NCBI GenBank assembly: GCA_964557535.1
Contig: CAZLAD010000002.1
Location: 21,560-85,559 of the forward strand
Direction: 5' to 3'
DNA from: an uncultured Candidatus Saccharibacteria bacterium
Lineage (GTDB): Bacteria; Patescibacteriota; Minisyncoccia; Phycocordibacterales; CSBR16-119
Length of the DNA stretch: 64,000 bases
Shown piece by piece: positions 2,069 through 53,024 of this stretch (the stretch's first letter is position 1; each line of letters opens with the position of its first letter). The notes under the pieces were generated by a model. It was not told the origin of the DNA. It saw only the letters and a program-made list of their open reading frames with translations, and did not search any database. The position numbers were made by a program, and so were the translations under genes.

Positions 2069-2193
2069 CTTCCTATCTTATCAAAAGTTTGCTTTTTAAG
2101 CCCTTTTTGGCTAATATTTGGCAGTATCTTCGAAAAGGTACACATTGAAAACTAAATATTCCCCGGTAGCGCAGCGGTAGCGCAGTTGCCTGT

Positions 2194-2756
2194 GAGAAAT
2201 GTAATGGTATACTTATTTTGTGTCTACCACAAGAAAAGAGACCAGAACATACTCCGATCGTGCAGAATATATGCGAGAAGCAGTTAAACGAAGACGTATA
2301 AAGCTTCGTGTAATGGCTCGTGAATATGCTGGCGGTAAATGCAGAATCTGTGGGTACAATAAATCTTCCCGAGCATTAAATTTCCACCATCTTGATCCAA
2401 AGAAAAAAGACTTTGGTTTGGCGGATGGCGGAATAACCAGATCTTGGGAAAAAACTCGCAAAGAAATAGACAAATGTATATTACTTTGCGCAAATTGTCA
2501 CATGGAAGTGCACGACGGAATTACGCAGCTCCCTTCGGAAACGAAGAGATGAAAAACAAGGTGAATTGTCTGGAAGCCCGAGCTGTAACAACAGCGGGTA
2601 ATCAGCAGCCAAGCCTCAATAATTTTTGAGGAAGGTTCAGAGACTATCCTAAACGGAGTAGGCCGAGAGTTTCGGTCGAAGCGCCTTGCACCTAAATTCC
2701 GATTCGGAACACGGTGATGATATAGTCCATTCCTAGAAGTGATTTTAGGGTAAATG
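2194..2756 (+). ncRNA. Group I self-splicing intron (ORF-containing), inserted between tRNA positions 35/36
   Basis: The catalytic-core conserved elements are all present: P-like caacagc (~2600), Q aatcagcagcc (2610-2620), R gttcagagactat (2636-2648) and S gatatagtcc (2719-2728). The intron ends in G before exon 2. Confidence 0.75.
2220..2552 (+). CDS. HNH homing endonuclease encoded inside the group I intron
   Basis: Carries CRICGYNKSSRALNFHHLDP...CILLCANCHMEVH, the HNH/zinc-finger motif. Lies entirely within the intron, 5' of the ribozyme core. Confidence 0.75.
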   Translation: MSTTRKETRTYSDRAEYMREAVKRRRIKLRVMAREYAGGKCRICGYNKSSRALNFHHLDPKKKDFGLADGGITRSWEKTRKEIDKCILLCANCHMEVHDGITQLPSETKR

Positions 2757-2834
2757 TAAGCAATTGGTCGCAGGTTCGAATCCTGCCCGGGGAGCCAAGT
2801 CGTGCGGAGTTATCCCGCACGAGACGCATCAATA

Positions 2835-2871
2835 TTTGTATCAGAAAAACCGCTTAGAATGAGCGGTTTTT
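2835..2871 (+). terminator. Rho-independent terminator after the tRNA (aaaaaccgct...agcggttttt), preceded by a second hairpin at 2799-2825
   Basis: Perfect 10-bp stem plus a T-run. Confidence 0.6.
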
Positions 2872-2901
2872 CTGTAGCCAATTAAATGATAAAATTAAAG
2901 C

Positions 2902-5900
2902 GTGAATTTTGAAAGAAATCTAAAACCCAACAAACTGGACGTCGGGTCAGTTGAGGATTTGTCCGAAAATCAAGAATCAAAGGAAAATCTAAATCAGGCA
3001 CATGAAAAAATTGTGTCTGTCTTGAAAGTTTTTAAACCAGAAGATATTTCATCAGATGAATTTCTTGATGAGGTGGTGGATAATTTATTTGAAGATGCTA
3101 AAAAACTCCAATTATCAAGGGGTCAACTTTTAGAGACCGATGAAGCTGTTTACTCTGAAATGAGAGAAATTTTGATTTCAAGATTCAAACAAATTTCCCA
3201 AGACTACTATGCTGATTATAAAGATATGAAAACGGAGCAATCTGGCCGAGATCTTTGTAGAAAAGCCAGACTTGGTTTGATTTTACTTGATGATCTGTCG
3301 GACTTCGAAGAAGAATTCACAAAAAGATATAACACGCCAAAAAATGACGATCCGAGACAATTAAATTTTGATAATGTTGTTCGCTATTTAAATTTGGATT
3401 GGCAAAACCCACTGAAAGTCAATGAAATAGAACTGTTGATACAAAATGGATACCTAGAAAAGATGTGTGACTTCAATGGAACACTCTACGGTTATATCGA
3501 AGGGACGCCAGAAGAGTTATTGAATGAGATGTCAAAGTCCGGTTTTGCTGGGTCTGCTCGTTGGTCAGACATAAATCATGCTCTTGGGGCTGTAGCGGGA
3601 AGCGAAGATCAGAAATATAGTAGAAAAGCGTTTGAGAATCTAATTGCAGGAAAATATATTAGAGGTATTGCTGAAAATATAAACGCTTTTGAAAACATAG
3701 ATCTAGAAGACCTAGCGATGGTTGGCCTAGACGCCAAAGACTTTATCAAGTTAATACTTGATAGATACGGAATAGACGACCCAACAATAGGAGATAAATT
3801 GAAGGATTTTGTTAAGCATAGCCAGATTAATTTTTTCGATGAAGAGCTAATTGTAAAAAAATGGCTAGGTTTAAAATTAAACAAAGTTCTGGAACAAGAC
3901 AGTAAGTTTTTTGATATTAGAGATGTAGAGCATTGTAAGAAAGTTATAGAGGCAGGATATCTAGGATTGGCGATATGGGACAATAAAATCTTTGAGGAGG
4001 TTGTTAAGAATGATTATGATTGGCTGCTCAATATAGCCAGAGAAAATCATCAAGAGCATCTCCTGCTCCGCTGTCCCGGTATTGGAAACGTCCTTAAAAA
4101 GGAAGATCAACTTGTATATGGTAAGAAACTTATTTCGGAGGGCAAATGGTATGTATTATCATCAATATTGGGCAATATAAGATACGCAGATTCACATTTT
4201 TCTTCTCAAACATTTGATCAAGATATATACGATTCTATCTCGAGCCATGATTTCCATCCGCATCCTGGAAGCTTTAAAAACTTAAATGAAGAGACTCTTG
4301 AGATTCTTTCTGAAAGGTTCCCTGATTTTATAGAACAGGATCCTCTGAGTATAACTAGTTTCGAATTCGGAGAAAATTCGAGATTAGAGGGATATAAGAG
4401 ATACAAGGAATTTATGCTTGAAGTTGAAGCTTTGTTCGACATTCGATTAAGTAAAGAGAGGCTAGAGACGATGAATTTTAATTTTAAAAGATTATCAAAG
4501 CTTTCTTTGGATCAAGGCTTAGAAAATATAAGAAGAAAGGCTTCTTTATACAAAAAAATCGAATCAGTGGCTATTTCTCAGGGGCACGACAAAGAACAAG
4601 TTTTTGATACCTTTGGTTGGATGTTGAATGATTCACATAGCGCTACACCCATAAGAGAAGAGGTCATTGATGAACTAAAATATGTTCCGAAGTCTCTTCA
4701 CGAAACTGAGAGATGTTTAACTATCTTGAATAGATTGACTGGACTTGATCGAGATAAAAAAACCCGAATAGCAATGGAACTATCTATGATCGCAGGATCA
4801 GAATTTTTGGGGGCCGAAGATGTTATATATGAACGATATTTCCGTATTACTTTGCCTGAAGAATCTAGATCTCCCACCAAAGATGAATTTCCTGCGCGAG
4901 AATCTATGGTTACTCAAATACCTGATTTTTCTACAGAATATAAGGAGATGAGCGAGCATTCGCAAGCAGTGTGGCAAAAATTATTCCCATGGTCTGAATC
5001 TTTGAGAGAACTTGAAGGTATCCAGAAACATGCAAAGAGGAGAGAATATGACCCTTGGCAAACAGAACTAGTTCCGCTTCTTAAACACGAACTTGGAAAT
5101 CTGTCATTTGCTAATCCAGAAGATGGAAAAATTTTAGTTGAATACGTAAAGAGATTTGGAATGAAAAATATTCCCTATCTATATTCGGTATTTTCCCAAG
5201 TTTATAAAAGTAAAGATGTAGATCAAATACCACCTCACATTAAGGGAATCCTTGCAGATGATTTCGGTATCAACGCAGAAGAACTTTGTAAAAAAGATAA
5301 AAAGAATTTGGGTCTAATTTTTGCTGAAATGGAGAAAATGCAGACTAGACTAGTTAGCGATATCAGGAATGAAGATTTATCCTTGCTAGAAAGAGTACAA
5401 AAATCACCTTATTTACTTGAAACGATTAAATCTATAGTTGGCAATTCGGGCCATGCGCATGGAGTAAGTACCGAAGAGGCTTTGGAGCTTTATAGAAAAG
5501 CCGTAAAAGAATCACCTAAGAAATTTTTGTTACCAGAAGGATATGAAGAAGTAGAAGTGAGTGTCCCGCAGGTTATATTTGAAGAGGAAGAAAAATCTGA
5601 GGTGATTCAGAAAGAAAAAGAGAAAATATTAAGCAATTCAGATCTAAGAACTTTGGCTGTTGGCTATCGTGACGTTTATAAGCAAAATAAAGACTCAGAT
5701 AACACAACTGATCTATCTAGCAAACGAGATGAAATTAGAAGTTTTATTCAGAGCTCGATAGATGATTTGAACTTACGTTTAAAACAAGAGGAAGAAAAAG
5801 AAATTAAAAATGAAAAAGCAATCTTCGGTCTAAAGTCTAGGATGCAAGCGCTTGAAGAAAAAAAGAAAGATTTCGATATAAATTTTGAAAAATCTTTGAG

Positions 5901-6798
5901 TAAAGAAATTTCTATAAAAGAAAGAATGGAAATACTTTTCGATCAAATACCAGAAAATTGGCCAGGAAAAAAGAACCTCATGATGGATATTAGCCTTTCA
6001 GATATAAAAAATAAAATGCCAGAAGGTTATGATCTGTTCAAATCAGGCATTCAAAATCACGATGACGAGGCTTCAATCTCTCAGATTTATGAATTTATAG
6101 CAAACCATGTTAAGGAACACTATTTAAACAAAAAACATGGACAAGGAGAAGCTGTGGAAACTGATAATAAGGCTTTGATCAAAGCGTTGAAGCAATATTG
6201 GGGTGTACAAGACTTTGATAACTCAATCTTAGCAGTTAGCCATGTAAAATTAGCGGAGTTAAACAAGGGTTCGATCTCAGAGAATAATCTTAATTTAAGT
6301 TTTGTGCCTTCAAAGGGACTGCAAAGAATTTTCAGTGGCGATTTAGGAAGAGCGTGTACGAGTCGAGAAAACGGCAACCTCGCAAAGGGTGAATTTGAAC
6401 CTATCACATCTTATTCAATCATATTAGATAAAGGAACAAAAAACGAAAGGTTTGCCGGATCTTTCCTGGTTATAGAAACGGGGACAGAAGACGGTAAGCC
6501 AGTAATGGTGCTTAGAGCAAACAACCCGCAACAAAATCTGTTTAATATGGTCCACGGTGACTCATTGGTTGCGTCTATTGTTAGTGAAGTAAAGGCGCTT
6601 GCGAAAAGAAGGGGTATAGATAGAGTGGTGGCGCCTCTATCTGGGGGAGCAACTTCAAACAGAACAGAGGTTGCGGAATACTATGACAAGACGTTTTCAA
6701 GTGGTCAGAAAATTGGTCTTAAAAAATCTCCGGAAACAAACTTTAATGGCTATGATATTTGGAATAAGGAGTCAGTGAATGCCGTCACTGTCATTTAG
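2902..6798 (+). CDS. Giant (1298 aa) acidic/lysine-rich hypothetical protein, GTG start, no signal peptide and no recognisable catalytic motifs; cargo of the tRNA-Asn-linked insertion
   Basis: Uninterrupted 3.9-kb ORF in a compact genome. No Walker, HExxH or other motif recognised. Confidence 0.6.
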   Translation: MNFERNLKPNKLDVGSVEDLSENQESKENLNQAHEKIVSVLKVFKPEDISSDEFLDEVVDNLFEDAKKLQLSRGQLLETDEAVYSEMREILISRFKQISQDYYADYKDMKTEQSGRDLCRKARLGLILLDDLSDFEEEFTKRYNTPKNDDPRQLNFDNVVRYLNLDWQNPLKVNEIELLIQNGYLEKMCDFNGTLYGYIEGTPEELLNEMSKSGFAGSARWSDINHALGAVAGSEDQKYSRKAFENLIAGKYIRGIAENINAFENIDLEDLAMVGLDAKDFIKLILDRYGIDDPTIGDKLKDFVKHSQINFFDEELIVKKWLGLKLNKVLEQDSKFFDIRDVEHCKKVIEAGYLGLAIWDNKIFEEVVKNDYDWLLNIARENHQEHLLLRCPGIGNVLKKEDQLVYGKKLISEGKWYVLSSILGNIRYADSHFSSQTFDQDIYDSISSHDFHPHPGSFKNLNEETLEILSERFPDFIEQDPLSITSFEFGENSRLEGYKRYKEFMLEVEALFDIRLSKERLETMNFNFKRLSKLSLDQGLENIRRKASLYKKIESVAISQGHDKEQVFDTFGWMLNDSHSATPIREEVIDELKYVPKSLHETERCLTILNRLTGLDRDKKTRIAMELSMIAGSEFLGAEDVIYERYFRITLPEESRSPTKDEFPARESMVTQIPDFSTEYKEMSEHSQAVWQKLFPWSESLRELEGIQKHAKRREYDPWQTELVPLLKHELGNLSFANPEDGKILVEYVKRFGMKNIPYLYSVFSQVYKSKDVDQIPPHIKGILADDFGINAEELCKKDKKNLGLIFAEMEKMQTRLVSDIRNEDLSLLERVQKSPYLLETIKSIVGNSGHAHGVSTEEALELYRKAVKESPKKFLLPEGYEEVEVSVPQVIFEEEEKSEVIQKEKEKILSNSDLRTLAVGYRDVYKQNKDSDNTTDLSSKRDEIRSFIQSSIDDLNLRLKQEEEKEIKNEKAIFGLKSRMQALEEKKKDFDINFEKSLSKEISIKERMEILFDQIPENWPGKKNLMMDISLSDIKNKMPEGYDLFKSGIQNHDDEASISQIYEFIANHVKEHYLNKKHGQGEAVETDNKALIKALKQYWGVQDFDNSILAVSHVKLAELNKGSISENNLNLSFVPSKGLQRIFSGDLGRACTSRENGNLAKGEFEPITSYSIILDKGTKNERFAGSFLVIETGTEDGKPVMVLRANNPQQNLFNMVHGDSLVASIVSEVKALAKRRGIDRVVAPLSGGATSNRTEVAEYYDKTFSSGQKIGLKKSPETNFNGYDIWNKESVNAVTVI

Positions 6799-6988
6799 AT
6801 TGTAAAATAGATATTTGTTTATCTTTTAGTAAAATTTTCCCTTTAAGATTCCCAAGTAATTCTCGCTTTTCCGAAATACTTCCATCTGCTAAAACGAACT
6901 TAGCATAATTCCGTATATCAACGTCATCAACTTTTACGACTTGGCTTTTACCAGAAACAAGTTTTTGGAATTTCTTGAATCGTGTCAC
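6791..6988 (-). pseudogene. C-terminal remnant (65 aa) of a large serine recombinase, paralog of the intact gene at 48801-50147
   Basis: The translation RFKKFQKLVSGKSQVVKVDDVDIRNYAKFVLADGSISEKRELLGNLKGKILL aligns with the last ~63 aa of the 448-aa recombinase at 48801-50147, at ~80% nt identity. No upstream catalytic domain is present. Confidence 0.75.
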
Positions 6989-7068
6989 TTTTGTAACTTT
7001 TTGATGCGCTCAAGACGCATCAGGAATTCCTGATTTTAGTGCTAAAATAGCCTTACCCTGCAATGAGC

Positions 7069-7101
7069 CAATTGGTTCTAACTCGAGTCGGGGAGCCAAG
7101 T
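7069..7101 (+). repeat. Decayed direct repeat of the tRNA-Asn 3' end (caattggt...cggggagccaagt); candidate attR of the 2798-7101 insertion
   Basis: Blocks of 8 and 13 nt are identical to 2761-2768 and 2788-2800 (T-arm/acceptor/CCA region), in the same order and orientation. Confidence 0.45.
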
Positions 7102-15042: not shown

Positions 15043-15636
15043 CTAGACATGATTTTTTAAAAAAGAAATTCGATGCAATGGCGTCGTACCAAATTCTCGT
15101 ATCGCATCCATATGCGATTTCGTTCCGTATCCTTTATTTTTTCTCCAACCATATTGATCTTCTTCGCCCGCAAGTTTTTCCATTTCCCTGTCACGCGAAA
15201 CTTTGGCCACAATTGAGGCGAGCGAAATTACGGGAATATTTTCATCACCCTTGATTATGGTTTCTTGATTATATTTATCCAATGCCCGAAGTCCACCATC
15301 GAGGAATACTTTCGTTTCAGCCGGATCGAAGTTTAATTTCTCTAAACAATTATCAACCGCCGCGCGGATACACACAGCAATGCCCTTGTCGTCAATTTCT
15401 ATATTTGAGGCCTTGGTCATCACATATCTGATTTTTTTCTCTTTAGCCAAACCATCCAAATATTCAAACCATTTCTCACGCATTTTGGCCGTGAGTTTCT
15501 TGGAATCTCGAAGCGGTAATTTCGCCCCGGAGACAATCTCGTCTATCGCGTTTGACGCGACCAAAAAGGCACAAACGTAGACCGGCCCAGCCACCGGCCC
15601 CCGCCCAACTTCGTCAATTCCGACTAAAAATTTCAT
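15043..15636 (-). CDS. rnhB: Ribonuclease HII
   Basis: GIDEVGRGPVAGPVYVCAF is the RNase HII active-site motif. Confidence 0.85.
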   Translation of the reverse strand: MKFLVGIDEVGRGPVAGPVYVCAFLVASNAIDEIVSGAKLPLRDSKKLTAKMREKWFEYLDGLAKEKKIRYVMTKASNIEIDDKGIAVCIRAAVDNCLEKLNFDPAETKVFLDGGLRALDKYNQETIIKGDENIPVISLASIVAKVSRDREMEKLAGEEDQYGWRKNKGYGTKSHMDAIREFGTTPLHRISFLKNHV

Positions 15637-38484: not shown

Positions 38485-39966
38485 TTATACCGACTTCTTG
38501 TCGAGATCGAGAGTTTCGTCGATACGGATTTGCTTTACGAATTCTGGAACGTGAGAAACGAGAATCATCGCGCCTTGGAATTCATCGAGCGCTTTGGCAA
38601 TGACCGGCAAATGTCGAAAGTTTATATGATTCGTCGGCTCGTCGAGAATGAGGAGTCCGGGTCGTTCGAGCACGAGCCGTGCAAATGCTACGAGTCCTTT
38701 CTGACCTTCGGACAAAGATCCGATTTTGGTTTTGATCATGTCGCCGGTAAGCAGAAATCCAGCCGCGGTTGCACGCAACCGTTCTTCGTTTAGGGGCATG
38801 TTCGCTATAGCCATACCATCACGCAGAGATTCGTAAATCGTTTGATTAAAATCAAGCGTCGAAAAATCTTGGCGATAGTAGCCAATGCGAACTTCTGGCG
38901 CAATTTTTACTCCCTCGGCCGTTCCACGGGCCAAATTCTCAAGAAGCGTCGACTTCCCTATTCCGTTTGGACCCGCGAGAAGAAGATGATTATTTTTCTT
39001 TAATTTTATGTTTACTTTTTTCTTTGTCGGTTTGTGATTTTTCAAAACGGTAACAGATTCGAAAGTAACCAAATCACCAATCAGATCACCCTGATATGGA
39101 ATAGTAAAATTCTTGATTGTTTTGTCTTCGCGTCGTACATCCACCAACTCTTCTTCGAGATCGGCCGCGAGGTCACGCATACGTTTCGCGACCGCACGCA
39201 AATTACCGCCTTTATGAGCAAAGACGTTAGCTTGATCCTTCTTGGCCTGGATGATTTTACCCAGTCGTGCGTTTTTGATATTTTCTTTTTCGACGCGCGC
39301 AGTAATGTCTTTGATCACATCGAAATAGTTTCCGACGTAGCGCTCAATTTTTCGCGTGAAAACGTCGAGATATAGCACGCCGTCAGTAAACGAATTCAAA
39401 AAGTCGGCGTCGTGAGAGATGACCAGACAAGTTTTTTGATAATTGATAAGAAAATCTGTAAGGTGTGCGATGCCGGCTTTGTCCAAATTATTCGTCGGCT
39501 CGTCGAGAAGAAGTATGTCTGGTTCTTGGATTAAAGCCGAGGCGAGAAGTATGCGTGCCTGCTGACCACCAGAAAAACTTCGAATGACGCGGTCGTGAAC
39601 TTTTTCATGACCTTTCAAGTGAACAATTTCTAGAACTTCATCGATGCGCGGATCAATGTCGTAAACCTTTGCTTTGAAATAACTTTGAAAAAATTCTCGC
39701 ACGGTCATGTCCATCTTCTCGCGCGGAATAACTTGTTTGGCGATGGCGATAGTAACTCCCCGCACAACGTGGATATCGCCAGAGTTCGGCTCGTGCTCGC
39801 CAGTAATGAGCCCAAAAAGTGTAGATTTACCCGCGCCGTTTTGACCCATAATAGTGAGCTTCATGCCCGAGCGCACCGAAAAAGACACCTCGTCGAGGAT
39901 CGGCTTCAAGGGATTGTATTCAAATGTGACTCCTTCGAATCGGAGAATCGTTTCGTCTTTGGACAC
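38485..39966 (-). CDS. ABC-F family ATPase (two tandem ABC domains, no TMD)
   Basis: Two Walker A motifs (GQNGAGKST, GPNGIGKST) and two LSGG signatures. Confidence 0.8.
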   Translation of the reverse strand: MSKDETILRFEGVTFEYNPLKPILDEVSFSVRSGMKLTIMGQNGAGKSTLFGLITGEHEPNSGDIHVVRGVTIAIAKQVIPREKMDMTVREFFQSYFKAKVYDIDPRIDEVLEIVHLKGHEKVHDRVIRSFSGGQQARILLASALIQEPDILLLDEPTNNLDKAGIAHLTDFLINYQKTCLVISHDADFLNSFTDGVLYLDVFTRKIERYVGNYFDVIKDITARVEKENIKNARLGKIIQAKKDQANVFAHKGGNLRAVAKRMRDLAADLEEELVDVRREDKTIKNFTIPYQGDLIGDLVTFESVTVLKNHKPTKKKVNIKLKKNNHLLLAGPNGIGKSTLLENLARGTAEGVKIAPEVRIGYYRQDFSTLDFNQTIYESLRDGMAIANMPLNEERLRATAAGFLLTGDMIKTKIGSLSEGQKGLVAFARLVLERPGLLILDEPTNHINFRHLPVIAKALDEFQGAMILVSHVPEFVKQIRIDETLDLDKKSV

Positions 39967-43505: not shown

Positions 43506-44816
43506 ATGAAAACTAATATTGAGGTTGTTTATGTTCGCACGGATCTACTTTCTGCTGCGGAATATAATCCACGCACGTGGGACTCAGAAGCCAAGAAGCA
43601 TTTAACAGAGAGTATTAATAAATTTGGTGTTGTTGATCCGCTCATCGTGAACGGTGCAACGAATCGAAAGAATATTGTTATCGGTGGGCACTTTCGTCTT
43701 GAAGTGTTAAAAGAACTTGGGCATGCCGAAGTTCCTGTCGTGTATCTAAACATACCCGACATAAACAAAGAGAAGGAACTAAATATTCGTCTCAATAAAA
43801 ACCAGGGAGAATTTGATCTCGATCTTCTAACATCTTTCGACGAAGGCTTATTAGCCGATATTGGTTTTTCAAGTGAAGAGCTTGATGATATTTTCCTTGA
43901 TGACATTGAAGAAGATGAGTTTGATCTAAAGAAAGCACTTGAGAGACTAGATATACAAAAAATTTCGGTAAAACCAGGAGATGTATACGAGATAGACGGC
44001 TCGCGTCTTATGTGTGGTGACTCGACAATAGAGTCTGACATGAAAAAGCTTGTGGGGAATGAAAAAGCCGACATGGTAATGACAGATCCACCATATATTC
44101 TCGACTACCTAACAAAACCAAACCAAGGAGGTTTTGGCGCAAATCAGAATAGAAAATATCTTGGAACCGACAGCTTGCCTCCAAACTTCACGGAGCTTTG
44201 GATGAGTAATGTTGCCGGGGCAGCCCAAAAGGATTTCTCTATTATCGTTTACGAGAATTGGAAGAATATTAGAACCATCTGGAATGAAATGGAGAAACAT
44301 TGGCGCGTCCGAAATATGATCGTTTGGCATGCCGCCAATAGAAGCCAGGGATATGCCGGCAAACACAAGTTCTTCAACAAGCACGACATCGCGATTGTTG
44401 GTACGACGCCAGGAAAAGATGTATCCAGCGAACAAGAAGATGCTCTTATCGAAAATGAATATGAGACGGCACTATTTGCAATTTCTGGAAGTCCTCATTG
44501 GGAGAAATATGAGAAAGGTAATCCATACTGTCCAACCGATTTCATCTCTCACAATGTAGCAACTGAAAAATCTTCTGGCCAAGGGGTTGTCTTTGGAACA
44601 AAACCAATCGAACTCTTGATTCCGTATATCAAGGTGCTGACCAAGCGTAATCAGTTGGTCCTGGAACCATTTGGCGGAAGCGGATCAACCCTCATCGCCT
44701 CCATTAAGATTAGTCGTCGATGCTTTACCATGGAGAAATCTCCCGTCTATTCTGAAGTCATCCTTACACGGTGGGAAAAATTAACTGGTAAGAAAAGAGT
44801 AAAAATAAATGCATAA
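43506..44816 (+). CDS. ParB-like nuclease domain fused to an N6A/N4C DNA methyltransferase (circularly permuted motifs: DPPY before FGGSG)
   Basis: N-terminal ParB/Srx fold (VDPLIVNG...GGHFRLEVLKELG), then MVMTDPPY (motif IV) and EPFGGSGSTLIAS (motif I). Confidence 0.75.
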   Translation: MKTNIEVVYVRTDLLSAAEYNPRTWDSEAKKHLTESINKFGVVDPLIVNGATNRKNIVIGGHFRLEVLKELGHAEVPVVYLNIPDINKEKELNIRLNKNQGEFDLDLLTSFDEGLLADIGFSSEELDDIFLDDIEEDEFDLKKALERLDIQKISVKPGDVYEIDGSRLMCGDSTIESDMKKLVGNEKADMVMTDPPYILDYLTKPNQGGFGANQNRKYLGTDSLPPNFTELWMSNVAGAAQKDFSIIVYENWKNIRTIWNEMEKHWRVRNMIVWHAANRSQGYAGKHKFFNKHDIAIVGTTPGKDVSSEQEDALIENEYETALFAISGSPHWEKYEKGNPYCPTDFISHNVATEKSSGQGVVFGTKPIELLIPYIKVLTKRNQLVLEPFGGSGSTLIASIKISRRCFTMEKSPVYSEVILTRWEKLTGKKRVKINA

Positions 44817-45264
44817 CAATGATATTAGAAAACAATTTATTGAAACTCTCGAAGAAGTCCCTTTCGTTAAATATGCTGCCAAGAAGGTCGGTATCAATCG
44901 TACGACTATATATCGATGGATGCAGGAAGACCCAAGATTCAGAATTCAAGTAGAAAAGTCTTTGGGTGAGGGCCGTAAATTACTTATCGAAGACGCGGAG
45001 TATCAATTACTAAAAAAGATTAGAAAAGATGGCAACCAAAGAGCCATAGAGTTTTTCCTAAAACATAATAATAAGAAGTATTATCCAAGAAAAACGATGG
45101 AGGTATATCCATTGGCTGAAGACCAGTATCAGATGTCGTTTGAAGAACACGCGGCTATCGAGTTGTGGTCAGAGAAGTTTGTTGAGCTATCTCCTATGTG
45201 GCGACGAATCTTCTCTGACATGGAAAAGAAGCTAGGAAACCCCGACGAAGACCGATCCTTATAA
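44809..45264 (+). CDS. HTH DNA-binding protein (terminase-small-subunit-like or regulator)
   Basis: VGINRTTIYRWMQ helix-turn-helix. Overlaps the upstream gene by 8 nt. Confidence 0.5.
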   Translation: MHNNDIRKQFIETLEEVPFVKYAAKKVGINRTTIYRWMQEDPRFRIQVEKSLGEGRKLLIEDAEYQLLKKIRKDGNQRAIEFFLKHNNKKYYPRKTMEVYPLAEDQYQMSFEEHAAIELWSEKFVELSPMWRRIFSDMEKKLGNPDEDRSL

Positions 45265-45276
45265 GGAGGAAGATGA

Positions 45277-45882
45277 TTAGTCGATTTGCACTAAGGTGTT
45301 GCAAGCCGTATCGTAACCATCACTCTCATTCTTCAAGAATTCACAGAGATTGCCACTATCGAAGTTCGACCAAGCGATCTTTTCATAGGTCGCTTTGTCG
45401 ATTGTATATACCAAGATCACTTTGTTTTCTGCATTCCCATATTTATCTGTCGTGTCGCCGTAGTACCAAACCAAGACATCGTACGCTTCTGGATGAGAAG
45501 AATATATTTCTTGGAATGTTTTGGCGGATAGCTCTCCTGTATTTCGGTATAAGGAATCTTTGTTGTAGAACGAAGAAAGAGAATATTTAACCGTGATCAT
45601 TTTCGTGTCGACAGGACGATCTGGGTCAGATTTCTCTATGTCCATTCCTACATAGGAAGCATGTGCAAGCGGAATGTCTTTAACAATCGCTTTTAGTCTA
45701 TCTTCTGGCGTTAGTGATTGTGCTGGAACATTTGTTGCAACAGTTTGTTCTGTTTTCTTGCCATCACCAGATCCGGCGATGACGAAAAGAAAAATAATAA
45801 AGACTACAATTCCAGTAATTACTGGGTGGCGTTTGATCCAGGACTTGGTTGTCTTAGGATCCATCATTGGGTGTTTATCCAT
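45277..45882 (-). CDS. N-terminally membrane-anchored extracytoplasmic protein, hypothetical
   Basis: TM helix VITGIVVFIIFLFVIAGSG, then a ~160-aa domain. Confidence 0.45.
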   Translation of the reverse strand: MDKHPMMDPKTTKSWIKRHPVITGIVVFIIFLFVIAGSGDGKKTEQTVATNVPAQSLTPEDRLKAIVKDIPLAHASYVGMDIEKSDPDRPVDTKMITVKYSLSSFYNKDSLYRNTGELSAKTFQEIYSSHPEAYDVLVWYYGDTTDKYGNAENKVILVYTIDKATYEKIAWSNFDSGNLCEFLKNESDGYDTACNTLVQID

Positions 45883-46167
45883 ATGTTATTACTAATTAAT
45901 AAATCCCGATGATGGATACAAAAAGCCCACCACGGGTAGGGCCCGAAAGCCCTCATACGAGTTTCCTCGTATGGCCAATCAGACAACCCCATGATGGGTT
46001 CTTTATGTCTGATTGGACTTTTTCACCATGCCCAGTAAGGGGTTTAGGCTACTTTATTTATTCGATTGTTCGACCATAATACCAAATAATAGGCATTACG
46101 CCCACCACCATAGCAGATTCCAGGATTTTGCGAAGGGGGTTACCAACAAGTTTAGATCTAAATTTTT

Positions 46168-48780
46168 TTACTTGATATCTTTTTTAGTTTCCACATTCTT
46201 GATACCCCAAGTTTCAAAAACCTCTCCTGTTATCCTTCTTAGATTTTCATTTTTTGATTTTATTAAATCAGGCATTTTTTTATCTAAGGGGTATTTCGAT
46301 AAGTTAACCCATGGCCACTGGTTCTTTTTAAGAAAACCGATTAATTGTTCTTGGGCGGCTTCATCGGAAGCATTAATCTTATCGACTAGCATGTCCATAA
46401 ATTTAGATGCGTATTCTGAGGGAGGAGGAATTTTTTGGAATCCTTGATTGATAAAATTAGCAATATTATCTGACAAGGCGGCTATATGTTTAGGGATGAT
46501 TCTTTTCCATATCTCTTCGGGTGTGGAAATATTTTGTTGAATTATAAAATTTAGACTCTGAATAAGAACATTAATATCAACTGAATCTTCAATCTTTTTC
46601 AATAGCTCCCCTTCGATCTCGGAAACCTTCCACGAACTATCGTCGGCTTTTGAGACTGCCCAAGTCGTAACGTCTGCATTTAAATCGTATACTTGTTTTA
46701 GAATTTTCTCTTTTAAGATTGTAATTCCGTTAGGTATAAAATATTTCAAAATTTCGAATCTCTTATCTCGTAGATCGTTATTCTCTCCTAACAAACCATC
46801 AGCAAAAGTATTTTCCATACCTTCCATTTCTTTTTGTACCGCAGGTTTATCTAGTTGTGGAAATAGATTTAACATTCTATTTGTTAAATCTGTTGGATTC
46901 TGAGGATAGAAATTCCTGTACCATCTAGTAAGTAGAGAGCTTGTGAAAATTCCAGGCTCAATAATGTTTGCGTTATCAAAATCGTTGGAATTTAGTATAA
47001 AATCAAATTTATTTTTAAAGCCATCGAAGATCGATTGTTCCTCGATAAGATCAATCCAGTGCGTAAAAGAATTAACGATATCAAATTTTTGTGCCAAATT
47101 TACAATAAAGTTGAGGTCTACGTCTTTTAATTTATCTGCAAATATTTTATGAACGGAATACTCTTTGGGAAACTGGGCTAATGCTATCATCAGAGCTTTT
47201 AAGATGCTTCCTCGTGTTTCTTCACCAAGACCTGGTAGTCTAGTCGAGACTACGCCCGCATAGTTAGATAAATTATTATCCCCAGAAGAAGCAAGAACGT
47301 TTTTTATTTGTACTGGATCACCAGTATCAATAATAGAAACAAAATCATCCCCAGATAATCCTCTATGATCACCAAAACTTGCATCTGCCGCCAAGAAAAT
47401 GAATGGTCGTATGTCAGCAATATCTAGACTGAAACCTTTATAGAATCTAGGATCCTCGTAGAGAAATGCCTCTATGAAACTTTTCTGACCCGAAGACATA
47501 TCTGTTCCGTACTTAGTTACTTCTTCATTTATTTTTACAGAATCTTTTTTCTCAACTAGGTACTCTAACTTTAGAAGTATCTCTTGATCATTGACAATTT
47601 TATCAAAAAGAGGCGGGCAAAGTTCTTGTAACATCAGAATACGTACTACGAGGAGGGGTTTATCGAGCATTTCCATAAAGTATTTCTTTTGTATTTCATC
47701 CTGATCACCAGATTTGCTTTGAATGATTTCAAAGGTGAATAATGTAGTTTCAATAAACCTGATAATTTGGCGATAGTTCTTACTGAAATATTTTTTTAAA
47801 TATCCGGCAAAAATAGTTTTATCATCTTCTTTAAGGAATATCTTATCTAGAGCCGAGTCTTTCTCCTTTAGCTTTTTATCAATGAATGAATCGATTTCCT
47901 TTTCTAATGGGAGAGGTAGGCGCCAATAAATATTAAATATTTTCTTTAAAAATCTTCTACCCTCCTCAAGTTGTTCAGGGCTGTTCGAATCCGGAAGAAT
48001 ATCTTTACCTAAATATCTTTCTAGAACGGTATGATCACCTGTTACCACGAATGTAATATCTTTTTTATCGAAGAACGTTCTTAGGTTATCTAGAACAGTA
48101 TGAGCAATTTCTGGAGTTACCCTATCAAGATCATCAACAAAGATAACAGGCTTCTTTTTATCTGATTTAAACGCATCAATAATTTTTCGCAAAAGCTCAT
48201 CAAATTGATCAATTGTAGAAATGGCATGATTACTTTTTTGCACAGTAATCATATTGCCCACAATACCAAGAAAGATTGGTATTCCCATTAACATTATCAA
48301 TGACTTCCAGTTTTGGATGAAAAGTTTGAAAGGATCAGAACATTGCATAACCATGTATACAATAAAGATCGCACCTGCAATCAAGAATAGATTTCCCCAA
48401 TGGACATTTGTCTCCGACGTGTCAAAATCTAGTGCTTTAAGGTCTTCTTTGACACCCGTATCAGTCAAATCACCAGCTAGTGTTTTCAAAAAATTTCTAA
48501 GGAAAGACGTACTATCGCTATCAGAAGCAAATTTCCAAGGATTAATTCTAAATATTTTAAATTTTTCTTCTTTAGAATCGGTCTGACTAACCAAATCTTC
48601 TTCTAATTGGTCCAAAAAGTGTGTTTTACCCTCGCCCCATTTCCCAGAAATACCAAAAATGAAGGATTCGCTATGCTTTCCGTGATTATCCTTTATTGTG
48701 TTGGCTACTTGTTTTACGAAGTATTTTTTACTATCCATAGTCTCGAATTTAGCATAAAAATCTTCATATTTATAGGGCAT
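46168..48780 (-). CDS. KAP-family P-loop NTPase (870 aa) with two TM helices inserted in the NTPase domain
   Basis: Walker A GISGKWGEGKTHF. The hydrophobic helices LFLIAGAIFIVYMVM and LIMLMGIPIFLGIVGNMI sit between Walker A and Walker B (VIFVDDLDR). A long alpha-helical C-terminal region follows. This is the defining KAP architecture. Confidence 0.7.
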   Translation of the reverse strand: MPYKYEDFYAKFETMDSKKYFVKQVANTIKDNHGKHSESFIFGISGKWGEGKTHFLDQLEEDLVSQTDSKEEKFKIFRINPWKFASDSDSTSFLRNFLKTLAGDLTDTGVKEDLKALDFDTSETNVHWGNLFLIAGAIFIVYMVMQCSDPFKLFIQNWKSLIMLMGIPIFLGIVGNMITVQKSNHAISTIDQFDELLRKIIDAFKSDKKKPVIFVDDLDRVTPEIAHTVLDNLRTFFDKKDITFVVTGDHTVLERYLGKDILPDSNSPEQLEEGRRFLKKIFNIYWRLPLPLEKEIDSFIDKKLKEKDSALDKIFLKEDDKTIFAGYLKKYFSKNYRQIIRFIETTLFTFEIIQSKSGDQDEIQKKYFMEMLDKPLLVVRILMLQELCPPLFDKIVNDQEILLKLEYLVEKKDSVKINEEVTKYGTDMSSGQKSFIEAFLYEDPRFYKGFSLDIADIRPFIFLAADASFGDHRGLSGDDFVSIIDTGDPVQIKNVLASSGDNNLSNYAGVVSTRLPGLGEETRGSILKALMIALAQFPKEYSVHKIFADKLKDVDLNFIVNLAQKFDIVNSFTHWIDLIEEQSIFDGFKNKFDFILNSNDFDNANIIEPGIFTSSLLTRWYRNFYPQNPTDLTNRMLNLFPQLDKPAVQKEMEGMENTFADGLLGENNDLRDKRFEILKYFIPNGITILKEKILKQVYDLNADVTTWAVSKADDSSWKVSEIEGELLKKIEDSVDINVLIQSLNFIIQQNISTPEEIWKRIIPKHIAALSDNIANFINQGFQKIPPPSEYASKFMDMLVDKINASDEAAQEQLIGFLKKNQWPWVNLSKYPLDKKMPDLIKSKNENLRRITGEVFETWGIKNVETKKDIK

Positions 48781-48800
48781 TCAATCCTTGACCTCCAAAA

Positions 48801-50147
48801 GTGTTTGCGTCATCCATAGAGTATATGGAAAAAGCGATTACAGGGCTTATAAGCCCACCAGTGTTACCCAGTATAGAGAAAGTCAGGTATTGTCTCTACG
48901 CTCGTAAATCCAGTGAGGATTCCAGCGAAAAACAGGCCCTTTCGGTGGATTCCCAAGTTAAGGAAATGTTGGCTATTGCCGAGCGAGAAAACTTAGAAAT
49001 CGTGGATATTCGGCGTGAGTCTCATTCGGCCAAGGATTCTGGTCAAAGACCTGTTTTTAACGAATTGGTTCGGGATCTCCGTAGTGGAAGATACACGGGT
49101 ATTTTAACCTGGGCCCCGGATAGACTTTCGAGAAATGCAGGAGATTTGGGCTCGCTCGTTGACCTGATGGATCAGAAACTTCTTCATGAGATAAGAACCT
49201 ACGGCCAGTACTTTAGAAATTCTCCGAATGAGAAATTTCTTTTGATGATTCTATGTTCACAAGCGAAACTTGAGAATGATAATAAAAGTATCAATGTTAA
49301 ACGTGGTCTTCGTACACGATGTGAAATGGGACTGTGGCCTGCGCCAGCTCCAATGGGATATTTAAATGAAATGAAGACGGACAGAAAAGGATATGTCTAT
49401 GTTGATCCAGAAAGAGGACATGTTATTAAAAAAATGTTTGAGAAAGTTGCCTTTGAAAAATGGAGCGGTAGAAAACTTTATCACTGGTTAAAGTTTGAGC
49501 TAAATTTTAAGACACCAAACGGCAATAAAGGCTTAACCTTGAGTTGTATTTATCTGATTCTTAGCAATCACTTTTATTATGGTACTTTTGAATTCCCAAG
49601 AAAAAGTGGTGTATGGTACAAAGGCATACACGAACCTATTATCACGAAAGAATTATTTGATCAGGTTCAAGAGCAGATGAGAAGCCAGTTCGTGAAATCA
49701 GAAACAAAAGAGTTTGCTTTCACGAAGCTTATGGCCTGCGGGCTGTGCGGTTCTGGCGTAACGGCTGATGAGAAATTTAAAAAGCAGAAAAATGGAAATA
49801 TACACAGACATGTTTATTATGGGTGTACTAGGGTACGCGACCAAAATTGTAAATGTGCATATATTAATGAGCCAGATCTTATTAAAGAATTTGAGTGCCT
49901 AATGGACGAAATTGATCTCAATGAGTTGGGGATGAAAGAAAAGATTAAACTTGAAATTGAACGATTCAAAAAGTTCCAGAAACTCGTTTCTGGTAAAAGC
50001 CAAATCATCAAAATTGATGAGGTTGATATACGAAATTACGCAAAGTTTGTTTTGGCTGAAGGAGCGCTGATTGAGAAACGTGAATTGCTTGGGAATTTAA
50101 AAGGAAAGATTATATTAGGAGATAAGAAAATCTCTTTAGTTTCCTAA
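48801..50147 (+). CDS. Large serine recombinase (resolvase catalytic domain + recombinase domain + zinc ribbon)
   Basis: YARKSSEDSSEKQALSVDSQ (catalytic Ser), DRLSRN, and CGLCGSGV...YYGCTRVRDQNCKC zinc ribbon. 448 aa. Confidence 0.8.
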   Translation: MFASSIEYMEKAITGLISPPVLPSIEKVRYCLYARKSSEDSSEKQALSVDSQVKEMLAIAERENLEIVDIRRESHSAKDSGQRPVFNELVRDLRSGRYTGILTWAPDRLSRNAGDLGSLVDLMDQKLLHEIRTYGQYFRNSPNEKFLLMILCSQAKLENDNKSINVKRGLRTRCEMGLWPAPAPMGYLNEMKTDRKGYVYVDPERGHVIKKMFEKVAFEKWSGRKLYHWLKFELNFKTPNGNKGLTLSCIYLILSNHFYYGTFEFPRKSGVWYKGIHEPIITKELFDQVQEQMRSQFVKSETKEFAFTKLMACGLCGSGVTADEKFKKQKNGNIHRHVYYGCTRVRDQNCKCAYINEPDLIKEFECLMDEIDLNELGMKEKIKLEIERFKKFQKLVSGKSQIIKIDEVDIRNYAKFVLAEGALIEKRELLGNLKGKIILGDKKISLVS

Positions 50148-50954
50148 TTCTTTTTTAAGAACAAAAATTTTCTTGGTAATCGTGAATTGAATAGTATTTC
50201 CTAGATCTTCGTACTTGAGCTTTTCTTTTAATTCGGGGTTAAATCTTTCGCGGATGTATTGGTTGAGCTGTTCAAGTTTCGACATGTCGCCGCCGAGCTC
50301 TTGTTCAAGTCGTCGAATAGAGTTAAACCGATAGTGGATAGGATGAAATTCATGAATGTTTCCGAAACCAGCCTTTTTAACATTTTCAATAAATTCATCT
50401 TCTCTAAAAAAGTATCTCTCGGTCATGAGCATGTCGAAGCCGCTCAATTCGTCTTTCTTGCGGATAATGTCTTGGAACAAGGTTTGAGTTTCATTGTCGA
50501 GCATGATGTCCCAGATGACAATCTTGCCAGTTGGCTTTAGTAACTTGTGGAACTCTTGTAGCACCTCGAGTTGCAAGGCCTTGGAAACCTCGTGGAGCCC
50601 CATTTTGAGTGCTATGGTATCGAAAAAAGATTCTTTGAATGGAGCTCCGGGCAAAGATGCGACAGAAAATCTTTCGGCTGGAAGATTTGGCAAATTTTCT
50701 CTCGCTCGCTGTACCTGTACATCACTTTCATCGACGAGATAGACGACTGCGTTCGGATTTCTCTCTAATACCTCTTTACCGATAGCTCCATATCCGCCCA
50801 TGGCGTCCAAAACGATCTCACCATCTTTCGGATCAATAGCATCAATAAACGCCTTTTTATCCGCAGGGTCAATCGAGTGGATGTACTCATAGGAAACTAT
50901 TCTATTGTCGAATCCTTGTTTCATAATTTTACAGATAATCTCCTCCGCTTTCAT
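50136..50954 (-). CDS. Class I SAM-dependent methyltransferase
   Basis: VLDAMGGYGAIG (motif I), YLVDESD (acidic post-I), KPTGKIVIWD. Confidence 0.65.
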   Translation of the reverse strand: MKAEEIICKIMKQGFDNRIVSYEYIHSIDPADKKAFIDAIDPKDGEIVLDAMGGYGAIGKEVLERNPNAVVYLVDESDVQVQRARENLPNLPAERFSVASLPGAPFKESFFDTIALKMGLHEVSKALQLEVLQEFHKLLKPTGKIVIWDIMLDNETQTLFQDIIRKKDELSGFDMLMTERYFFREDEFIENVKKAGFGNIHEFHPIHYRFNSIRRLEQELGGDMSKLEQLNQYIRERFNPELKEKLKYEDLGNTIQFTITKKIFVLKKELGN

Positions 50955-51750
50955 TTTTGAATTCCTTTCTGAATTGTTTCCATCCGATAAGATTGCCCAT
51001 TCTTTTTCTTGTGTTTAGTGCTTGAGCGACATGCTCGAATGGACTCCAGTGTCCAGACGAAGAAAGCCTCTCACATAATTTTAGATCGCTATTGATATCA
51101 GAAGTTTTTCCATCAAAAAGAGAGTAACTCACTCGTGCGCATCGAGCCGCACTAATCTTTTTTCTCATCTCTAGATCAAGGGTATGTTCAGTGTCTAAAA
51201 TAAAAGGAAGATGCCATTCATCAGATTGCAATATGTTTGGTTTCTGATCCTGTAAGAGTAAATTCATCCTTTCTGCGACATATCTGATTTCAGGCTGAGC
51301 GGCTTCGTTTGATCTTAGAGAAATAAAGTTGGACCACTCTGTCGCAGTTATAATCACATCAACCATGAGCCAAGGTTCTATGAGTCGATTCACCACCTCC
51401 TTATGCATTCCTAGTTTTTCTCCCAGCCAATGAAAGAAAACAGGTACATACCTAGACCAAAGCCATATCTTTTTTGCCAAGAATAGTTTTAGACCTCTAA
51501 AGGGCTTGCCAGATTGCATGCCAGCCCTGTTCTCACCGAAATATACTGGCAAGAAAGGATCATTAAGAACATATTTTCTAATTCTTTTTGCTGGAATAGC
51601 CCTACTCGAGGCAGAGTTTCTTGAAAGCGTTCGATGACTAATGATATGTCCCCAAAGAAATTTGGGGATCTTGAGAACAAAAGTTGCCAGACGCTTTTGG
51701 GTATCTGTTGATTCAGAATAAGTAATTAATGATACTTTAATTTTATTCAT
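50929..51750 (-). CDS. ThyX-like (flavin-dependent thymidylate synthase fold) protein with altered motif order and a degenerate signature
   Basis: N-terminal FVLKIPKFLWGHIISHRTLSRNSASSRA aligns with the ThyX segment [28 protein letters not shown]. The first Arg of the RHR signature motif is replaced by Ser. C-terminal AARCARVSYSLFDG...GHWSPFEHV resembles the ThyX N-terminal segment AARVSFD...GHETPFEH. Confidence 0.5.
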   Translation of the reverse strand: MNKIKVSLITYSESTDTQKRLATFVLKIPKFLWGHIISHRTLSRNSASSRAIPAKRIRKYVLNDPFLPVYFGENRAGMQSGKPFRGLKLFLAKKIWLWSRYVPVFFHWLGEKLGMHKEVVNRLIEPWLMVDVIITATEWSNFISLRSNEAAQPEIRYVAERMNLLLQDQKPNILQSDEWHLPFILDTEHTLDLEMRKKISAARCARVSYSLFDGKTSDINSDLKLCERLSSSGHWSPFEHVAQALNTRKRMGNLIGWKQFRKEFKNESGGDYL

Positions 51751-52879
51751 GTTTGTCTAGTATATCAGTTACCGTATCAGGGACGTCGATAAACCCAAGC
51801 TGTCCAATTTCGTTGTTTGTCAGAGCTTCTAAAGTTGATCCGTACAATAGGCCAATAGTACGTTCGATTTCTTCTGGGGTTGATTCGTATCGATTACCTT
51901 TGAATGTTATTGGAAACCCGTTGTTTATGAGTACCAAATTATCCCAAATAACATCTCCATGGATTTCAGAAGATTTAATACTGTTTTTTCTTATGTATAT
52001 TGTCGGGAACTCGCGATCAGCCGATGACATACTTATAAGGTAGAGCTTATAATCTAAAAGATCTTTAATTTCTTGAAGCTGTTCCTCGTTTAGAATATTT
52101 GAACCCGTCACACCAACCACAACATTAATATTATTATCTCGAATCAGGTTCACTAATTCAGATTTATCATGGTGAGCAATATCGTACCCTAATGCAAAAT
52201 AACCTTTCTCTTTAAATATCGAAAGCGTATTACTACCCATAGGTCCTAGTCCGACAACGAGAATTCTTGGTTCAGCAATGGAATACTGCTTGAACGCATC
52301 TACCATTCTATTGCACCCCAGCTCCGCGATGAGAGGACTTTCTTTTATAAGTTTGACCGAAGCACGGGCGACATTGAATATTGGGAAATGAACTTGTGAT
52401 TTTTCAAGCTTTCTAAAACCAGATGAGGTTTGTTCGATGCCGATGACAGGAATCTCTTTGGATATAGAATCAAATTTATCATTTACGATTCTAAGCAACT
52501 CTCCACCATCATCTAAAATAATAACTTTTGAAGGATTCTTGATCCGAGACAAGAATAAATCGAGTTGCTTGGTGCAATTTTCAGCATGTTCGATATCGAA
52601 TGAGACAGATTGATCGAAGTTTGGTTGGACAACATTAAATCCAGCGTCAGATAATTCTTTCAATACTTCATTACTGGTTGAATAGATCTTGCCGAAGATA
52701 TGAATGTTCTCTTTTGGAACACCAAACTCTACCAATAACTCAAACATTTTTGCTTGCGACTCGAGTATGTGCTGACAGGCGAGAATATAGACATTATCAA
52801 ATCCACCCTTTTTTGAATCAAAATAACGGGAGATCTCCTCCAGTAGAGAATACTTATAAGCTGTTTCCATGACTTCCAT
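51743..52879 (-). CDS. S-adenosyl-L-homocysteine hydrolase-like protein (divergent)
   Basis: ILACQHILESQAKMFELLVEFG...IHIFGKIYSTSNEV matches GCLHMTxQTAVLIETLxxLGA...CNIFSTQDHAA. VIILDDGGEL matches ILDDGGDL. NAD-binding VVGLGPMGS matches AGYGDVGKG. Confidence 0.55.
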   Translation of the reverse strand: MEVMETAYKYSLLEEISRYFDSKKGGFDNVYILACQHILESQAKMFELLVEFGVPKENIHIFGKIYSTSNEVLKELSDAGFNVVQPNFDQSVSFDIEHAENCTKQLDLFLSRIKNPSKVIILDDGGELLRIVNDKFDSISKEIPVIGIEQTSSGFRKLEKSQVHFPIFNVARASVKLIKESPLIAELGCNRMVDAFKQYSIAEPRILVVGLGPMGSNTLSIFKEKGYFALGYDIAHHDKSELVNLIRDNNINVVVGVTGSNILNEEQLQEIKDLLDYKLYLISMSSADREFPTIYIRKNSIKSSEIHGDVIWDNLVLINNGFPITFKGNRYESTPEEIERTIGLLYGSTLEALTNNEIGQLGFIDVPDTVTDILDKHE

Positions 52880-52950
52880 TATACTAAATCCTTAGGTGTT
52901 TTAACCTAGGGACTTTCAACGCGTCTCGAGCGCGATAACCTAGCTCAAGT

Positions 52951-53024
52951 TGGCTGCGGAACCTGGACTCGAACCAAGATACCCTCCTCCAGAGGGAGGT
53001 GTCCTACCATTAGACGATTCCGCA
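52951..53024 (-). tRNA. tRNA-Gln(CUG), CCA encoded
   Basis: Cloverleaf UGCGGAA-UC-GUCUAAUGGUAGGAC-A-CCUCC-CUCUGGA-GGAGG-GUAU-CUUGG-UUCGAGU-CCAGG-UUCCGCA-G-CCA, similar to E. coli tRNA-Gln2. Confidence 0.75.

Follow-up and report, generated by a model that had tools for sequence, protein, structure and literature searches.

How did the tRNA-Asn gene of an uncultured Candidatus Saccharibacteria bacterium come to be followed by a 4.3-kb segment that carries one very long gene and a short piece of another? The window analysed here is the whole stretch of 64,000 nucleotides from contig CAZLAD010000002.1, and the segment in question (positions 2798-7101) begins directly after the end of the tRNA-Asn 3' exon (2797). 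Genes for Ddl, a ribosome hibernation factor, an S24/LexA-like protein, BacA and GDH flank the locus. A preliminary description of this DNA held that the segment contains only a 1298-aa protein and the final part of a large serine recombinase (LSR), and that it represents an element which targeted the tRNA 3' end and has lost its recombinase. The open reading frame (ORF) listing agrees on the content: there are two ORFs only, one of 1298 aa on the + strand and one of 65 aa on the - strand, and the stop of the latter overlaps that of the former by 8 nt (Table 1). The reading itself is supported by an intact paralogue of the recombinase in the same window, a junction arm shared by both loci, a further instance in another metagenome and phage-borne relatives. 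Judged from sequence comparisons, the segment is probably the remnant of an LSR integrative element, and this element was probably a temperate phage of Patescibacteria.

By its sequence, the 65-aa ORF is an LSR gene remnant that keeps ~14% of the gene, is not a functional member of the family and cannot be catalytic. The preliminary assignment to the C-terminus of an LSR is borne out by 76% identity and 95% similarity to residues 386-447 of the intact LSR in the window, and by seven full-length relatives from viral contigs to which the remnant is 37-57% identical. LSR homology in the segment comprises the last ~63 codons only (6994 to 6805), with no further homology upstream of the remnant in any frame. 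The catalytic Resolvase domain (PF00239), which bears the nucleophilic serine, was found neither in the ORF nor in the upstream frames, and Pfam detected no Recombinase (PF07508) or zinc-ribbon (PF13408) domain in the ORF, which was without a match in Pfam, NCBIfam, PHROGs, PADLOC and PDB sequence searches. A first search with the 65-aa ORF returned 15 short homologues, and the profile built from them matched 1551 proteins; the best 120 of these are all 78-164 aa long, and the longer ones carry PF13408. The scan of viral contigs (IMG/VR) gave seven loci, each encoding a full-length serine recombinase of ~430-450 aa with the same tail.

Tails of this kind are not peculiar to the window. 5'-truncated LSR tails of 63-190 codons are common in Patescibacteria contigs (loci L002, L003, L005-L007, L008 and L009/L010), and where neighbouring genes were called, each tail adjoins the 3' end of a convergent, variable cargo: a type I restriction-modification system, a DnaA_C/sigma70_r4 protein with a HATPase, or an AsnB-like protein with a methyltransferase. 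The truncation points vary by locus (residues ~254, 314, 359, 377 and 388). At the truncation point in the window (6990-7013), a degenerate tandem copy of the first remnant codons is present (ERFKKFQK; sense strand -), whose DNA matches the sister gene (6992-7013 to 49957-49978); this copy may be the footprint of a deletion or slippage event.

The intact paralogue was found with one full-length viral protein as query and lies 42 kb from the remnant, beside the tRNA-Gln gene. Its stop overlaps the first convergent cargo gene by 12 nt and, read in the orientation of the tRNA, the order is the same at both loci: tRNA, cargo, and a recombinase facing back to the tRNA. It belongs to a second, better-preserved element of the same LSR family (43506-53024), the methyltransferase of which is mad2-like. 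The full-length LSRs of the viral contigs are directly preceded by large-terminase and ParB-N6-methylase genes, and in one such locus (L026) the slot between recombinase and tRNA is occupied by a 907-aa SF1 helicase. The sister region has kept a ParB-N6 methylase and a small-terminase-like ORF, and a KAP NTPase resembling the PifA/QatA defence proteins stands in the place of the large terminase. Both elements of the window thus have the appearance of decayed prophages that belong to a single family.

Another origin was considered, namely a small autonomous cassette island of ~5.5 kb with an LSR and one cargo gene only, the N-terminal part of the LSR having been lost by a local deletion of ~1.1 kb. 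The 5' side of the remnant is indeed ~80-100 nt from the distal core of the boundary repeat described below, remnants elsewhere abut compact cargo (restriction-modification systems, 1-3 genes), and Pfam and PHROG searches found no phage structural gene left in the Asn island. However, every full-length viral-contig relative examined adjoins terminase or ParB-methylase genes, the sister keeps part of the phage module and has the KAP NTPase, not an att site, directly before its LSR start, and no intact minimal element composed of an LSR and cargo was seen. We thus regard the cassette island as rather unlikely and continue with the decayed prophage.

The abundance of stand-alone tails in this LSR family bears on a further model, in which attP lies inside the integrase gene and the tail is not debris but the displaced 3' end of a split functional integrase. 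Such att sites inside serine integrase genes have a precedent in streptococcal integrative and conjugative elements that target rumA (PMC4701971). We rejected this model, to which we give almost no credence: an N-terminal LSR part was found neither at the other end of the island nor nearby, the truncation points differ from locus to locus, and in the intact relatives as well as in the integrated sister copy the integrase gene is contiguous.

Further evidence for integration at the tRNA comes from the junctions. A 19-nt arm, GTTATCnCGCnCGAGACGC, begins 12 nt after the CCA of both tRNA-Asn and tRNA-Gln, with 17 of 17 specified bases identical; the sister copy lies at 52921-52939 (-). These two are the only exact copies in the 64 kb, where 0.08 would be expected even with three mismatches, and the arm is absent after the other five tRNAs called in the window. 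A copy with three mismatches at 39714 was discarded as it lies inside a coding region, and so were two matches to the arm motif in viral contigs, which are unrelated GC-rich sequences. In a contig from another metagenome (L008), the same arm, apart from one mismatch, comes after the same tRNA-Asn 3' end. The remnant has its closest relative here (75% identical), in an LSR remnant of 128 aa, and past the arm the contig diverges from the window: an AsnB-type amidotransferase, a methyltransferase and an uncharacterised 475-aa protein converge on the 128-aa remnant. In L009, a 3' fragment of a tRNA and an arm of related sequence lie beyond type I restriction-modification cargo, which converges on a 137-aa remnant. 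The fragment has a terminator hairpin directly upstream and is not part of a complete tRNA; it could be an attP-like sequence that is intact, or else an attL that has lost its tRNA. Furthermore, three of the seven IMG/VR relatives have a tRNA (Asp, Ser and Ser) just past the LSR stop, and these share a conserved arm of their own.

The far end of the segment is marked by a repeat of the near one. Exactly two copies of the 13-nt sequence CGGGGAGCCAAGT exist in the 64 kb; they begin at 2788 and 7089 and share the + orientation, and the ribosome-binding site of orf124 follows directly after the distal junction (7101). The preliminary description had reported 21 of 33 nt repeating the tRNA 3' end, and the same count was obtained for 2768-2800 against 7069-7101, ungapped and with the exact 13-mer included. 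When the sequence was shuffled with its dinucleotides preserved, a direct exact match of at least 13 nt to the tRNA 3' end arose within 10 kb downstream in 1 of 300 shuffles, and a 21/33 match in 5 of 300. The repeat had been described as a decayed attR-like sequence; it is a direct repeat at the boundary, but it need not be decayed, as attP and attB of a serine integrase can look like this, with a 13-nt common core and partial similarity around it. Large serine integrases typically have short common cores. On our reading, the arms may be half-sites derived from attP, and the 13-nt repeat may be the core that attB and attP share.

Several observations weigh against this interpretation. When the shuffles covered the whole remaining window, an exact match of at least 13 nt was seen in 4 of 100 and a 21/33 match in 12 of 100; the significance of the boundary repeat is moderate and is carried by the 13-mer. 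The GC content of the segment (0.32-0.38) hardly differs from that of the right flank, and the composition profile gave no clear island signal across the segment. Nine Ddl-anchored loci from GTDB species, none of them syntenic, yielded neither an orthologous empty site nor an excision junction, and the insertion is thus something that we infer. Exact-protein look-ups of Ddl and orf124 returned the source contig only. The Ddl-related loci are annotated as Paceibacterota, Parcubacteria or Saccharibacteria, by which the window is assigned to a Patescibacteria genome; that the structure of the locus is not conserved in these relatives speaks for an insertion, not against it. Retention of attR ~75 nt from the end-point of a deletion is a coincidence that has to be accepted, and a search for a distal att site or repeat of the sister element found none. 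Relatives of the 1298-aa protein are encoded elsewhere among housekeeping genes (ABC-F ATPase, FtsH), none with a recombinase nearby. Finally, L008 contains a direct repeat of ~125 nt (117-241 and 1010-1134, 72-91% identical) that flanks a polysaccharide deacetylase gene beyond the remnant, and one copy (rep2) weakly resembles the right junction of the window (AGCCAATTG..GGTTCT.AACTCG). This resemblance arose in 0 of 1000 targeted shuffles but is at background level for a scan of 64 kb, and the similarity of the repeats to the tRNA is not significant. Neither was relied on; the repeats could be tandem attR-type scars, which is not statistically secure.

Some of these points would also fit a locus without any insertion, in which the giant gene is ancestral, the 13-nt repeat a chance match and the LSR tail the debris of an unrelated event. 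The housekeeping contexts of the giant-gene relatives, the whole-window frequency of the 13-mer, the unremarkable composition and the failure of Ddl-anchored relatives and exact-protein look-ups to yield an empty site all favour it. Nevertheless, the giant gene sits exactly between a conserved element arm and an LSR tail, the same arm and geometry recur with other cargo at the tRNA-Gln of the window and at the tRNA-Asn of L008, and the repeat is direct and placed at the exact boundary. A locus without insertion is, in our view, very improbable, and the remnant of an LSR element remains the preferred reading.

The target of this element is unusual in itself. ARAGORN called six tRNAs in the 64-kb window and none at 2741-2800, because the tRNA-Asn gene is split by a group I intron; joining 2160-2193 and 2757-2797 in silico gave a canonical tRNA-Asn(GTT) of 75 nt. 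The tRNA-Asn placed at the start of the insertion by the preliminary description is hence a real tRNA-Asn 3' end, but it comprises only the 3' exon of an intron-split gene, and bases 2741-2756 are intron. The exon belongs to a gene that is presumably functional, and the intron is predicted to be self-splicing. The Rfam group I model RF00028 matched 2476-2749 with 72.6 bits (E=3.7e-17; gathering score 50). By inspection, P1 pairs CUGU/G (2190-2194) with CGCAG (2524-2528), including the expected U.G wobble, P10 pairs the UAA at the start of the 3' exon (2757-2759) with UUA (2521-2523), and a GAAA-capped P2 hairpin is located at 2529-2549. The 3' end of an HNH endonuclease ORF in the intron overlaps the ribozyme core. 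Known examples of split bacterial tRNAs are the cyanobacterial tRNA-Leu(UAA) and the Azoarcus tRNA-Ile. Like other group I intron-split bacterial tRNAs, this one has an anticodon-loop intron with U-1 and omega-G and an Rfam group I match, whereas here the host tRNA is Asn(GUU), the insertion site follows loop position 4 and the HNH ORF sits in the P1 loop. Williams (2020, bioRxiv 10.1101/2020.01.27.920355) described 21 classes of such tRNAs, by whose nomenclature the window intron is 'Asn.4Ug', and reported them as common in metagenomic 'unnamed phyla'. In a relative (L015), tRNA-Asn is uninterrupted and its neighbours are unrelated. In two further loci, a tRNA-Gln(CTG) gene lies downstream of Ddl (L013, 17283-17355; L014, 10291-10362, directly after it), while in the window Ddl adjoins tRNA-Asn, at 50 kb from tRNA-Gln, which suggests that the surroundings of these tRNA genes have been rearranged.

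The sequence anatomy, the homologies, the arm common to both loci and the sister element are observed; from them we infer an integration event, a crossover within the 13-nt core and a single large deletion, and the same holds for any function of the cargo. The element would have recombined with the 3' end of the intron-containing tRNA-Asn gene. This would have left the tRNA joined to an element-derived arm as attL, with the core at 2788-2800 and the arm extending to 2827, and would have placed a second core copy at the far end as attR (7089-7101), ahead of the original downstream gene. The integrase gene would have pointed towards the tRNA, as in the intact relatives, and a cargo ('moron') slot would have separated the two; here the 1298-aa gene occupies this slot. 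A later internal deletion may then have taken integrase codons 1 to ~377 together with the phage body, up to ~75 nt from attR; the cargo gene, an integrase remnant of the last ~63 codons and the two junctions would have been left. By itself, the island would no longer be able to move. Scans for promoters and terminators gave no useful information.

Table 1. Features of the two tRNA-linked loci and of one comparison locus. Positions refer to the 64-kb window, except those of L009, which are positions in that locus.
Feature	Position	Strand	Basis or remark
tRNA-Asn(GUU) 5' exon: acceptor, D arm, anticodon stem, loop bases CUGU	2160-2193	+	sequence reading; ARAGORN on spliced product
Group I intron, 563 nt, between anticodon-loop positions 35/36, U-1 and omega-G	2194-2756	+	Rfam RF00028
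HNH endonuclease ORF, 110 aa, within intron P1 loop	2220-2552	+	Pfam HNH 1.3e-6; PHROG HNH endonuclease families down to 2.4e-29
tRNA-Asn 3' exon, CCA encoded at end	2757-2797	+	sequence; ARAGORN on spliced product
Proximal copy of 13-nt core CGGGGAGCCAAGT (acceptor 3' strand, CCA, 3 nt beyond); putative attL core	2788-2800	+	exact 13-mer; shuffle test
Junction arm, element side, motif GTTATCCCGCACGAGACGC at 2809-2827; putative attP-derived half-site	2798-2827	+	motif match
Cargo gene, 1298 aa: N-terminal ~1120 aa all helical, alpha/beta domain at C-terminus (aa ~1124-1298, nt ~6271-6795), predicted GNAT-like	2902-6798	+	ORF, AlphaFold2, Foldseek
5'-truncated LSR gene remnant, last ~63 of ~448 codons	6791-6988	-	profile search, comparison with sister LSR
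attR-like distal junction: 13-nt core 7089-7101 after partial tRNA T-arm mimic	7069-7101	+	exact 13-mer, alignment, shuffles
ParB-N6 methylase, sister region	43506-44816		small-terminase-like ORF also kept in sister region
LOOT RNA, inside sister element between phage-module genes and KAP NTPase	45938-46050	-	Rfam RF03000, 79.8 bits (gathering 46.4)
Sister LSR, intact, 448 aa: Resolvase, Recombinase, Zn_ribbon_recom	48801-50147	+	tblastn, Pfam
Sister cargo slot and target: methyltransferase, ThyX-like protein, uncharacterised 378-aa protein, arm, tRNA-Gln	50136-53024	-	ORFs, Pfam, ARAGORN
tRNA-Gln	52951-53024	-	ARAGORN
L009: tRNA 3'-end fragment (GTTCGAGTCC...CAGCCA) and arm like the tRNA-Gln junction of the window	15361-15420	-	alignment

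The cargo gene encodes an intact protein, for which the best guess is a long helical scaffold that ends in a divergent, predicted GNAT-like acyltransferase domain. The preliminary description had taken it for an orphan of no recognisable family. It has indeed no match in Pfam, NCBIfam, PHROG, PADLOC and PDB sequence searches (ferritin and glycosyltransferase matches in the library searches were dismissed as noise), and a word-indexed search found one homologue with 39% identity; yet it is not an orphan, as an exhaustive HMMER search returned 566 homologue clusters (50% identity level), of which 132 reach E<=1e-30. Five or six clusters are full-length relatives; in most, the shared part is confined to residues ~690-1298 and invariably forms the C-terminus of a protein of 1000-3400 aa. 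No Pfam domain was detected in any member tested.

Structure prediction, which the preliminary description had proposed, gave a confident model of the C-terminal part. The AlphaFold2 model of residues 690-1298 (24-sequence alignment; predicted local distance difference test score, pLDDT, 89.8) consists of helical bundles followed by an alpha/beta domain at ~1124-1298, in which C1152, GS1186-7, E1192, RANNP1205-9, NR1253-4 and T..N.Y1279-84 are invariant. All matches of this domain in a Foldseek search of the PDB were GNAT folds, with the AtaT and KacT toxins on top, and the best E-value was a weak 0.023. No Pfam, PDB-profile or hidden Markov model (HMM) match to GNAT was obtained, and the acetyl-CoA motif Q/R-x-x-G-x-G/A is absent, with RANNP in the equivalent position. 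We thus only tentatively call the domain GNAT-like, of acyltransferase type and divergent. The N-terminal 700 aa gave a helical model (pLDDT 75) with generic solenoid matches only in Foldseek. Compared with the GNAT toxins AtaT, TacT and KacT, the domain has the predicted GNAT strand-helix order and finds these proteins as its top PDB matches; it differs in the weak E-values (at least 0.023), the lack of HMM similarity, RANNP in place of the CoA motif and the fusion to a helical scaffold of more than 1100 aa, and no antitoxin-like partner was identified.

Because members elsewhere lie among housekeeping genes without a recombinase nearby, the giant family is not intrinsically mobile cargo; one member is found in a phage cargo slot here. 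In two distant giant-family loci, a class II (Asp/Lys/Asn-type) aminoacyl-tRNA synthetase gene stands directly upstream (L041, 4183-5637; L043, 2875-4344) and a gene for a conserved, uncharacterised 443-aa protein directly downstream. This linkage may reflect a functional tie to tRNA or translation, or may be a coincidence. On a speculative view, to which we attach a low probability, the giant protein would be a new phage-borne 'moron' effector, whose helical scaffold of more than 1100 aa carries a divergent GNAT-like acyltransferase with an invariant cysteine; as a defence or toxin function, it would act on aminoacyl-tRNA or some other component of translation, and selection would have kept it after the decay of the phage. 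The island, with both junctions, might then be mobilisable in trans by the sister integrase.

Targeting of tRNA genes is mostly a habit of tyrosine integrases, and islands at tRNA 3' ends are classically tyrosine-integrase elements, such as P4-like islands and the integrative and conjugative elements of actinomycetes (AICEs). The segment resembles prophages and islands of this kind (Islander/TIGER-type) in that the tRNA stays intact, a direct repeat marks the distal end, the integrase lies beside the att site, the cargo is variable and decay proceeds by internal deletion. In contrast, the integrase here is an LSR, the identity block is 13 nt and the target tRNA contains a group I intron. With phage large serine integrases of the phiC31, Bxb1, A118 and TP901-1 type it has in common the domain architecture of the sister LSR and phage-borne relatives beside a terminase. 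Known examples of that type target protein-coding genes or intergenic sites, whereas the LSR family described here ends at tRNA genes, and the copy in the segment keeps ~14% of the gene. About one third of mapped islands use tRNA or tmRNA genes (PMC12424338), and the preference of tyrosine integrases for tRNA targets is partly stated in PMC4701971.

Mobile elements of Patescibacteria are little documented, and none of the papers searched pairs 'large serine recombinase' with 'Patescibacteria'. In the window, one serine-integrase phage family is represented by two copies, one intact and one decayed, whose junctions can be recognised. They supply candidate attB and attP sequences for an integrase directed at tRNA 3' ends, and integrases of this sort are potential genetic tools for uncultivated lineages. 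Two hazards for annotation follow from the locus. Intron-split tRNAs are missed by standard tRNA finders, which hides integration sites, and the tails of integrases persist as many small 'hypothetical proteins'. Moreover, the cargo gene leads to a giant protein family of 566 clusters (50% identity level), whose enzyme-like C-terminal domain is well predicted but unassigned.

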